Positions 1 through 991 of a stretch of DNA of 4,046 nt are shown one piece after another. Source of the stretch: a virus (taxonomy: Duplodnaviria > Heunggongvirae > Uroviricota > Caudoviricetes). The position numbers and the translations under genes are program-made. The DNA lies in the IMG/VR virus record IMGVR_UViG_2698536339_000020; one strand, given 5' to 3'. Position 1 is the first letter of the stretch. Each line of letters starts with the position of its first letter. A model generated the notes under the pieces. The model ran no database searches. It was given only the letters and a program-made list of their open reading frames with translations, and was not told where the DNA came from.

Positions 1-540
1 ATGAATCCGTTTAACGCCATTACTTTTGCTGCATTGTGCGGGCCTCTGGCTTGTCCTGCTGCTATGGCGCAGGAGTTCATCATCCAGCCAGCCCCTGTGA
101 TTGCTAAACCTTTTGAGTACTCTCCTTCTGTTGAGGAATTCTCACGCAAAATGGAAGAGGGTAAGGAGATCTTGCAAAAGTTAACAATTGCAGCAGATGA
201 CTACTATATCTGTTTGATTGATCTTAATAGCCAAGATGCTCGCGAGTTTGTTTCCAAAAACGGGACAGATACGACAGAGGCATGCGAAATGTTCCTGCGT
301 GCTTTTGAAGAAGAAGTGAAGCGTACAATTGAATCGCCTCTACCTGAATTTATCAGGTCAGAACTGAAGGTTTACTGGCGTCATATTGCTAAAGCTCGCT
401 CATCTGTCACTCGCCTTAACAATTACATAAAGAGCATATTTAAAGAAACTGTTACTTTTAGCGGGCGCGCGGATCTTGCTGGAATTGCAGCACTAGCTAG
501 TCACACATCAAATAAGCTAAAATCGATGCAATTTCACTAA
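1..540 (+). CDS. Hypothetical protein with hydrophobic, signal-peptide-like N-terminus; candidate partner of the downstream YafO-family toxin; may be 5'-truncated by the window edge
   Basis: Frame is open from nt 1 (ATG) to TAA at 538-540. The N-terminus MNPFNAITFAALCGPLACPAAMA is an uncharged hydrophobic stretch ending in an AxA-like AMA; no K/R n-region is visible, so the true start may lie upstream of the window. The remainder is charged and helix-like. No family recognised by eye. The stop is 16 nt before the next gene start, suggesting one operon. Confidence 0.6.
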   Translation: MNPFNAITFAALCGPLACPAAMAQEFIIQPAPVIAKPFEYSPSVEEFSRKMEEGKEILQKLTIAADDYYICLIDLNSQDAREFVSKNGTDTTEACEMFLRAFEEEVKRTIESPLPEFIRSELKVYWRHIAKARSSVTRLNNYIKSIFKETVTFSGRADLAGIAALASHTSNKLKSMQFH

Positions 541-556
541 CCGATAGCGGACGGCC

Positions 557-991
557 ATGCATCTAGAAGTCTCTATTAATCCAGAAACTAGAGCTGAATT
601 TTTTGATGAAGTTTTTCTCAAATTCCCGGAGCTAGAGTCTTCTATCATTGATGATTTCAAGAGATACAAAGCAACCGGTGAGCTTCCGCACTATTTCGGT
701 AGGGACGTTGCGTATACTCAGCCTTATGGTGCTTTTCGGGCTGGGTTGATGCATATCCATCTTTGTCTACCGCCAAACAAGTTTCCCGAGAAACTTCCAC
801 AACCGGATAGGGTCTGCAAGAAAGGTGATCCTGATAATGATGCTTGTCTTGTGTATGTCCAAGGTGAGCTTTATGAGAATAAATATTCACTCATTGCTAT
901 TATGTATCCCGATGCACATGAAAAAGCAAGAAAACATGATGTGATGAGCTATCTGGCGCGAATTGCCCAGAATTATAAAGATGAAAACTAA
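557..991 (+). CDS. Type II toxin, YafO family (ribosome-dependent mRNA interferase-like)
   Basis: The 144-aa translation carries the blocks I recall from E. coli YafO: YK(A/R)(T/D)GxLP..FGRD..Y, then HIHL followed by a proline-rich stretch (LCLPPNKFP), then D-A-x-LVY-x-QG, then LIAI..P(D/E)(A/P)H(E/K)(K/L)AR. ATG at 557 is the only start before residue 65; the upstream SD is weak (GGA). TAA at 989-991 is followed immediately by a terminator hairpin. Confidence 0.8.
   Translation: MHLEVSINPETRAEFFDEVFLKFPELESSIIDDFKRYKATGELPHYFGRDVAYTQPYGAFRAGLMHIHLCLPPNKFPEKLPQPDRVCKKGDPDNDACLVYVQGELYENKYSLIAIMYPDAHEKARKHDVMSYLARIAQNYKDEN

Follow-up and report, generated by a model that had tools for sequence, protein, structure and literature searches.

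The window analyzed here (the whole 4,046-nt stretch of IMG/VR virus record IMGVR_UViG_2698536339_000020, Caudoviricetes) begins with a gene, ORF1, that lies directly 5' of a YafO-like toxin gene and encodes a protein with an uncharged, signal-peptide-like N-terminus. Type II antitoxins are cytoplasmic, protease-labile and usually DNA-binding. The locus raises the question of whether ORF1 is a complete gene or a fragment cut by the window edge and, if complete, whether its product is an exported, membrane-anchored or cytoplasmic partner of the toxin.

ORF1 is a full-length gene

The two genes of interest and the hairpin that follows them are located as follows.

1-540, plus strand: ORF1, partner gene at the window start, complete coding sequence of 179 aa plus stop codon (WP_001067896; phrog_8416; without a Pfam match)
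557-991, plus strand: YafO-family toxin gene, 144 aa, 16 nt 3' of ORF1, with a RelE/HigB-type fold model
990-1007, no strand assigned: intrinsic-terminator-like hairpin, AACCCGCCGAAGCGGGTT followed by a T-run, 7-bp stem with 5 G-C pairs

Nucleotides 1-1010 of the window recur at 99.7-100% identity in 49 of 5,426 complete E. coli genomes, and NZ_AP045802, which matches this interval at 100%, supplies the sequence 5' of the window. Extending the sequence upstream, as the original prediction had proposed, revealed an in-frame TAA 13 codons 5' of the ORF1 ATG, no ATG, GTG or TTG among the 12 codons in between, and a Shine-Dalgarno GAGG 5 nt before the ATG. The PGAP annotation of NZ_AP045802 contains the identical 179-aa coding sequence (WP_001067896). 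All close homologs (Phytobacter, Enterobacter, Pantoea, Serratia) share an MNP(F/L)N start after a kept GAGGTTG, and the N-terminal extensions of the few longer database entries are not conserved. ORF1 is thus a full-length gene, and the suggestion that it is truncated at the window edge is refuted.

In the related proposal, the hydrophobic stretch would be an internal helix of a longer protein and ORF1 just the 3' portion of its gene; the sole support is that the ORF begins at nt 1. This proposal is refuted by the upstream stop, the lack of another start, the Shine-Dalgarno sequence, the PGAP call and the initiator Met shared by the homologs. The window edge itself coincides with a limit drawn in prophage calling: a large number of IMG/VR prophage contigs begin precisely at the ORF1 ATG, and the window begins there because they are cut at that point. 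Within the set L010-L039 from IMG/VR, many predicted-prophage contigs open with the ATG of ORF1 or, ORF1 being cut off, with that of the yafO-like gene; prophage-caller boundaries therefore split the cassette.

A rare family paired with a YafO-like toxin

The 144-aa product of the downstream gene matches Pfam YafO_toxin (PF13957) with 76.5 bits (gathering cut-off 25) over profile positions 1-100 of 101. It is not an equivalog of K-12 YafO, scoring 75.8 bits against NCBIfam PRK09885 vs. a cut-off of 153. The motifs FGRD, HIH and LVYxQG occur unchanged in 28 YafO-like homologs, and the structural model resembles solved toxins of the RelE superfamily, with HigB2 as the closest match. A clear Shine-Dalgarno sequence was not found in the 16-nt spacer before the yafO-like gene, and several orthologs have a GTG start or a 4-nt overlap with ORF1; together these features suggest that the toxin is translated at a low level relative to ORF1 or is coupled to it.

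The ORF1 family is rare, with 22 clusters in a collection of 5.8 billion proteins and approximately 23 representatives (E-value <=0.001) among 1.84 billion proteins. A Pfam search with 21 diverse members gave zero hits at E <=1, including to PhdYeFM_antitox, and neither ORF1 nor the 21-member alignment had a meaningful match in Pfam, NCBIfam, PADLOC or the PDB, or any fold match. PHROGs returned only phrog_8416, 'unknown function', and a plasmid search gave no match. Every source names the family 'hypothetical' except the records of two induced phages of E. coli (PhiR40_1 and PhiR55_1), which call it 'YafM antitoxin', a label traceable to automatic annotation usage only. A literature search found no paper testing this YafO partner and turned up no exported type II antitoxin; to our knowledge, none has been described. 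By these comparisons, ORF1 matches no described antitoxin family, and it would be the first YafO partner bearing an export-type N-terminus.

The pairing with the toxin gene is constant. An ORF1-family gene lies directly 5' of the yafO-like gene at all 49 fetched loci that have sequence upstream of yafO-like, and the six remote members of the ORF1 and YafO families that were inspected individually (from Photorhabdus, Gilliamella, Providencia and several metagenomic or run assemblies) have the same order with gaps of 3-20 nt. Over the intact cassettes examined, which come from several genera, the gap ranges from -4 to 20 nt. ORF1 thus displays the adjacency, co-orientation and conserved co-occurrence with a toxin gene that mark a type II antitoxin. 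The original prediction was correct in calling it atypical for a YafO partner, since it is unrelated to YafN/Phd and yet is the constant companion of this YafO subfamily.

The cassette is distributed across prophages of Enterobacterales and Orbaceae, including the inducible phages PhiR40_1 and PhiR55_1. Its flanks vary from a lambdoid prophage att end to tail/baseplate modules, an Arc/Ant immunity region and one apparently non-phage chromosomal site; the ORF1-yafO-like pair is therefore a mobile two-gene moron. No third conserved gene was seen in the cassette at the loci examined. The only solo copy of the family that was found, P0029 (L067, 2001-2414), is an orphan, 5'-truncated homolog of 137 aa that lacks the hydrophobic N-terminus and has no yafO-like gene downstream; its locus looks like an eroded cassette.

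Upstream of ORF1, a sigma-70-like promoter (TTGACC-17-TAGACT) lies 54-82 nt 5' of the ATG, and a perfect 6-4-6 palindrome, AATAGCtaagGCTATT (AATAGC-taag-GCTATT), lies just past the -10 element, 30-45 nt 5' of the ATG. Promoter and palindrome together occupy L001 5919-5971, corresponding to window positions -82 to -30. The -35, -10 and Shine-Dalgarno elements are conserved between loci, and the palindrome arms co-vary in orthologous loci (GATAAC/GTTATC, CTATAGC/GCTATAG, TAAGC/GCTTA). The palindrome could be a 5'-terminal mRNA hairpin or an operator, and in the latter case a DNA-binding partner in the cytoplasm would be required. Comparison with shuffles gave no support for a structured 5'UTR (z-score +1.37), with the small palindrome hairpin alone folding. 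At the other end, the hairpin at 990-1007 overlaps the yafO-like stop codon and is bidirectional, separating the cassette from a convergent prtN-like gene. Judged from these elements, ORF1 and the yafO-like gene are a self-contained prophage moron with its own predicted promoter and terminator.

The N-terminus of ORF1 resembles a weak Sec signal

The AlphaFold2 model of ORF1 (pLDDT 78.7) consists of a helix (residues 6-24) and a helical bundle (44-174) separated by a disordered stretch (25-43). Combined with the sequence comparisons, it gives the following layout.

1-69, plus strand: signal-peptide-like segment, codons 1-23, with n-region MNPFN, h-region AITFAALCG(PL) and c-region PLACPAAMA
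70-99, plus strand: motif QEFIIQPAPV, codons 24-33, just past the putative cleavage site and conserved in the MNPFN clade (QEFIxQPAPV)
100-129, plus strand: linker, codons 34-43, variable, indel-prone and of low model confidence
130-522, plus strand: all-alpha bundle, codons 44-174, with helices at 44-74, 77-87, 90-111, 116-146 and 159-174

No DNA-binding fold was detected in ORF1, and the modeled all-alpha bundle is unlike the Phd fold of the Phd/YefM domain. The residues conserved across the family (Y69, E96, R100, E103, R133, N140, L162 and L165) all lie in the helical domain.

Residues 1-24, MNPFNAITFAALCGPLACPAAMAQ, contain no D, E, K or R and run into A-M-A/Q-E (the slash marking the putative cut) with Pro at -5. 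The uncharged N-terminal segment that had been predicted is therefore confirmed, with the qualification that its hydrophobicity is weak. The putative signal peptidase I (SPase I) site falls after A23; the c-region (P19, then A21-M-A23/Q24-E25) combines a helix breaker with small residues at -3 and -1 and a +1 residue other than Pro. The c-region sequence AQPAAMA resembles the end of the PelB leader, AQPAMA. The h-region is uncharged but weak, with a hydrophobicity of about 1.88-1.99 (1.83-1.99 across its clade; the best 10-residue Kyte-Doolittle mean of the ORF1 N-terminus is 1.88), and the n-region MNPFN carries zero net charge, as in the whole MNPFN clade, rather than the positive charge of a typical signal.

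Other targeting signals were considered and rejected. In a lipoprotein (SPase II) reading, C13 (A-A-L-C) and C18 (P-L-A-C) would be the candidate cysteines, and neither context is a lipobox ([LVI][ASTVI][GAS]C); some distant family members have a Cys soon past the hydrophobic stretch, also without a canonical lipobox. A Tat signal was rejected because residues 1-48 contain no Arg and the S/T-R-R-x-F-L-K motif is absent. A transmembrane anchor was rejected on the best 19-residue Kyte-Doolittle mean of 1.45, which is below the usual threshold of 1.6, and on the three Pro and one Gly within the segment.

Signal-peptide grammar is shared across the ORF1 family

A crude, home-made Sec/SPase-I rule was applied to the family. 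It calls for a non-acidic n-region, an h-region of >=9 uncharged residues whose mean hydrophobicity is >=1.6, and a c-region likewise free of charge; the -3 and -1 residues must be small, and the cut must fall at positions 15-35. The background of the rule is about 4%. The rule was passed by 38 of 46 family members, 12 of these 38 with K or R in the n-region. The controls were 83 ORFs of >=150 aa taken from the same loci; those that passed were 11 family members, four obviously exported proteins and three others. By these counts, the signal-like N-terminus of the family goes beyond chance. The eight failures were P0038, P0039 and P0041-P0044, from the 'GLLMQ' clade, together with P0023 and P0032; several of them have acidic residues ahead of the hydrophobic stretch, and P0040, another 'GLLMQ' clade member, passes.

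The remote clades show the same grammar with little sequence likeness: an n-region often containing K/R, an uncharged h-region, a Pro/Ser c-region, and a small-x-small motif with an acidic residue after it. This layout is seen in MKTTLSICAAALSMALSSPNVLA followed by RE, MNLSLRSCLAVVLFGGVLSVPSFSA followed by GY, MANHSVINSAILAALFAFSSQA followed by DE, and MNTLNLKAIVAICGALFHPVTLA followed by QG. The c-region pattern is kept in diverged relatives (VLA/RE, SQA/DE, TLA/QG, ALA/HE), and h-region hydrophobicity reaches 2.83 in other clades. The four exported control proteins have values of 2.49-2.73, all above the ORF1 clade. At the N-terminus of the family it is thus the properties and not the sequence that are conserved, the positions conserved in sequence being those of the helical domain. 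By these measures, the signals of the distant clades appear strong and canonical, and that of the E. coli clade appears weak.

In the relatives, basic residues precede the N-terminal segment and acidic residues follow it, and these flanking charges predict an N-in/C-out orientation. The original prediction of an exported or membrane-anchored protein is supported in its first part, in that the family-wide grammar points to export-type targeting. Its second part fares poorly, as the 19-residue mean, the prolines and glycine and the predicted orientation disfavor a stable transmembrane anchor for ORF1.

The N-terminus is unusually constrained

Typical signal peptides evolve faster than the mature proteins to which they are attached. 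ORF1 does the opposite within the E. coli clade, where codons 1-24 have a Nei-Gojobori pN of 0.079, compared with 0.30 in the folded domain and 0.47 in the linker; non-synonymous change is thus about four times slower in codons 1-24 than in the folded domain. The slow N-terminus therefore argues for an added, sequence-specific constraint on the segment. In the E. coli/Pantoea/Serratia clade, no other part of the protein is as constrained as residues 1-33, and the conservation crosses the putative cleavage site. A motif of the G-x-L-x-Q type can be aligned between clades of the family.

A DNA-level constraint or overlapping element was rejected as the cause of this conservation, since pS in codons 1-24 is substantial (0.52) vs. 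a pN of 0.079. The pS of the rest of ORF1 is 0.81, and the lower value near the start may reflect a mild additional nucleotide-level constraint at window positions 1-72, for example from translation initiation or mRNA structure.

A proposed exported partner and its alternatives

Combined, these results best fit ORF1 as a Sec-targeted, probably exported YafO partner, a reading with a probability of roughly 0.5, and confidence in Sec targeting is higher for the strong-signal clades than for the window protein. The protein would be made as a precursor whose first 23 residues act as a Sec-type signal, probably cleaved after AMA, and the all-alpha mature protein, or at least its free pool, would go to the envelope instead of staying in the cytoplasm like a classical DNA-binding antitoxin. 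A RelE-fold toxin needs restraint in the cytoplasm and the cassette has no third conserved gene; the precursor is therefore the likely neutralizer of YafO. Sec export, instead of or besides proteolysis, may keep the free neutralizer short-lived, and the toxin would be freed once synthesis of the pair stops, for example upon host shut-off by an infecting phage. The weak, charge-less and unusually conserved signal of the E. coli/Pantoea clade would be consistent with export that is slow or with an additional task of the segment, for instance in contacting YafO. The pair appears to be a non-canonical, toxin-antitoxin-like and obligate partnership and, by analogy, would work like a type II toxin-antitoxin moron in which neutralization by ORF1 is putative. 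The stricter version of this mechanism, in which the precursor neutralizes YafO and Sec translocation, not Lon/Clp proteolysis, continuously removes the free neutralizer, is speculative and on balance doubtful. If it held, toxin release would depend on how fast new protein is made and on the condition of the Sec pathway, and the cassette would be an abortive-infection or addiction module of the prophage whose antitoxin is labile in a new way.

The constraint on residues 1-33, running through the putative cleavage site, is also what a cytoplasmic type II antitoxin would display if the helix at 6-24 and the extended EFIIQPAPV folded onto YafO, with a flexible linker leading to a C-terminal helical domain that dimerizes, binds DNA and represses the promoter through the palindrome; the likeness to a signal would then be coincidental. 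This reading is the strongest competitor of export but a tentative one, held at distinctly less than even odds. It gains from the weak and charge-less signal of ORF1, the G-x-L-x-Q type motif alignable across clades, the perfect palindrome with co-varying arms just downstream of the -10 element, the requirement that a RelE-fold toxin be neutralized in the cytoplasm, and the 'YafM antitoxin' label of the phage records, which is annotation only. Additionally, the best structural match of the toxin is HigB2, whose antitoxin HigA2 reportedly neutralizes it through a disordered N-terminal helix-plus-strand segment. However, known toxin-binding segments of antitoxins are charged and disordered, and a charge-free extreme N-terminus of 24 residues is unlike them. 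A cytoplasmic role also leaves unexplained why diverse clades have K/R n-regions, Pro/Ser c-regions and a small-x-small motif plus acidic residue at positions 20-24, and why the N-terminus is conserved in properties only although the YafO partners are at least 49% identical; moreover, the DNA-binding fold that it calls for was not detected.

Export itself would equally suit an envelope protein with a role of its own, such as superinfection exclusion or lysogenic conversion, with YafO kept harmless by low expression or another factor. The signal-peptide grammar, the location of the cassette at moron positions typical of exported lysogenic-conversion genes and the lack of an obvious Shine-Dalgarno sequence for yafO-like in the 16-nt spacer all agree with such a role. 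We nevertheless consider it quite unlikely: all intact cassettes examined, from several genera and with varied flanks, keep the two genes strictly adjacent (-4 to 20 nt), which argues for a functional unit, the cassette has no other conserved ORF fit to be the antitoxin, and the only solo copy is a 5'-truncated remnant. Less likely again is that the N-terminus stays uncleaved and anchors the partner, together with YafO, in the inner membrane. The uncharged N-terminal helix of 24 residues and the conservation past the putative cleavage site are compatible with tethering, but the hydrophobicity and the three Pro and one Gly of the segment are not those of an anchor, and the N-in/C-out orientation predicted from the relatives would place the domain in the periplasm, away from YafO.

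Comparison with known systems and significance

One close parallel is E. coli yafN-yafO, which is likewise a compact two-gene unit with a Pfam YafO_toxin gene downstream and its partner directly upstream in the same orientation. The partners differ, with ORF1 being a 179-aa, all-alpha protein that has a signal-like N-terminus and no match to Phd/YefM (YafN) or another Pfam family. The settings differ as well, with yafN-yafO belonging to the SOS-regulated dinB operon and the ORF1 pair, whose toxin is no K-12 equivalog, being a prophage moron. In Vibrio cholerae HigB2-HigA2, the toxin gene comes first, whereas the partner comes first in the ORF1 cassette; HigA2 has an HTH and a polar disordered N-terminus, whereas in ORF1 no HTH was detected and the N-terminus is uncharged and signal-like.

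Antitoxins of the TAC systems carry a C-terminal aggregation-prone or hydrophobic extension and are encoded with a dedicated SecB-like chaperone gene (PMC5105189). ORF1 too carries a hydrophobic extension that links it to the world of export chaperones, and TAC may offer a precedent for Sec/SecB-coupled toxin control; the ORF1 segment is, however, N-terminal and resembles a cleavable signal, and the cassette lacks a third gene. Periplasmic immunity proteins (T6SS Tsi, colicin M Cmi) are also partners with a signal peptide or lipobox encoded beside a toxin gene, but their toxins act in the periplasm, whereas the YafO-like protein has the fold of a cytoplasmic, ribosome-dependent mRNase and no export signal. 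The PelB leader shares with ORF1 a length of about 23 residues, small residues at -3 and -1, Pro at -5 and a similar end (AQPAAMA/Q in ORF1, AQPAMA/ in PelB). It differs in that ORF1 lacks K/R in the n-region and has a far weaker h-region and an unusually strong sequence conservation.

A RelE-fold toxin that is always paired with a secreted-protein-like partner would imply either a new form of toxin control, with export as turnover and a link to Sec status, or the use of a signal-like segment as a toxin-binding element, and the latter would call for caution with automated localization calls. The evidence on this small family is all in silico, and the feature appears both conserved and surprising. 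Because the cassette is present in the inducible phages PhiR40_1 and PhiR55_1, these possibilities are directly testable.

Prophage setting and other genes of the window

The prophage of NZ_AP045802 that carries this region at one of its ends has dusA as its insertion site. Approximately 200 nt 5' of ORF1 (L001 5694-5798 and flanks), a 5' piece of dusA is left, so that transcription from the host gene would head toward the cassette. The integrase is absent from this prophage end, where the first phage genes are ORF1, yafO-like and prtN-like (L001). Past the cassette, the minus strand of the window encodes a PrtN-like protein, an Rv2179c-like 3'-5' exonuclease, a methyltransferase-like ORF and a YfdR-like HD hydrolase, which is typical of a lambdoid early region. 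Near its N-terminus, a 103-aa ORF on the same strand (1899-2210) is strongly hydrophobic (LVANIALMLFVALCIWVWFIWPF); the matching E. coli record has a DUF551 pseudogene at this position. The window diverges from that record beyond approximately nt 2140 and contains an extra methyltransferase-like ORF at 2203-2724.
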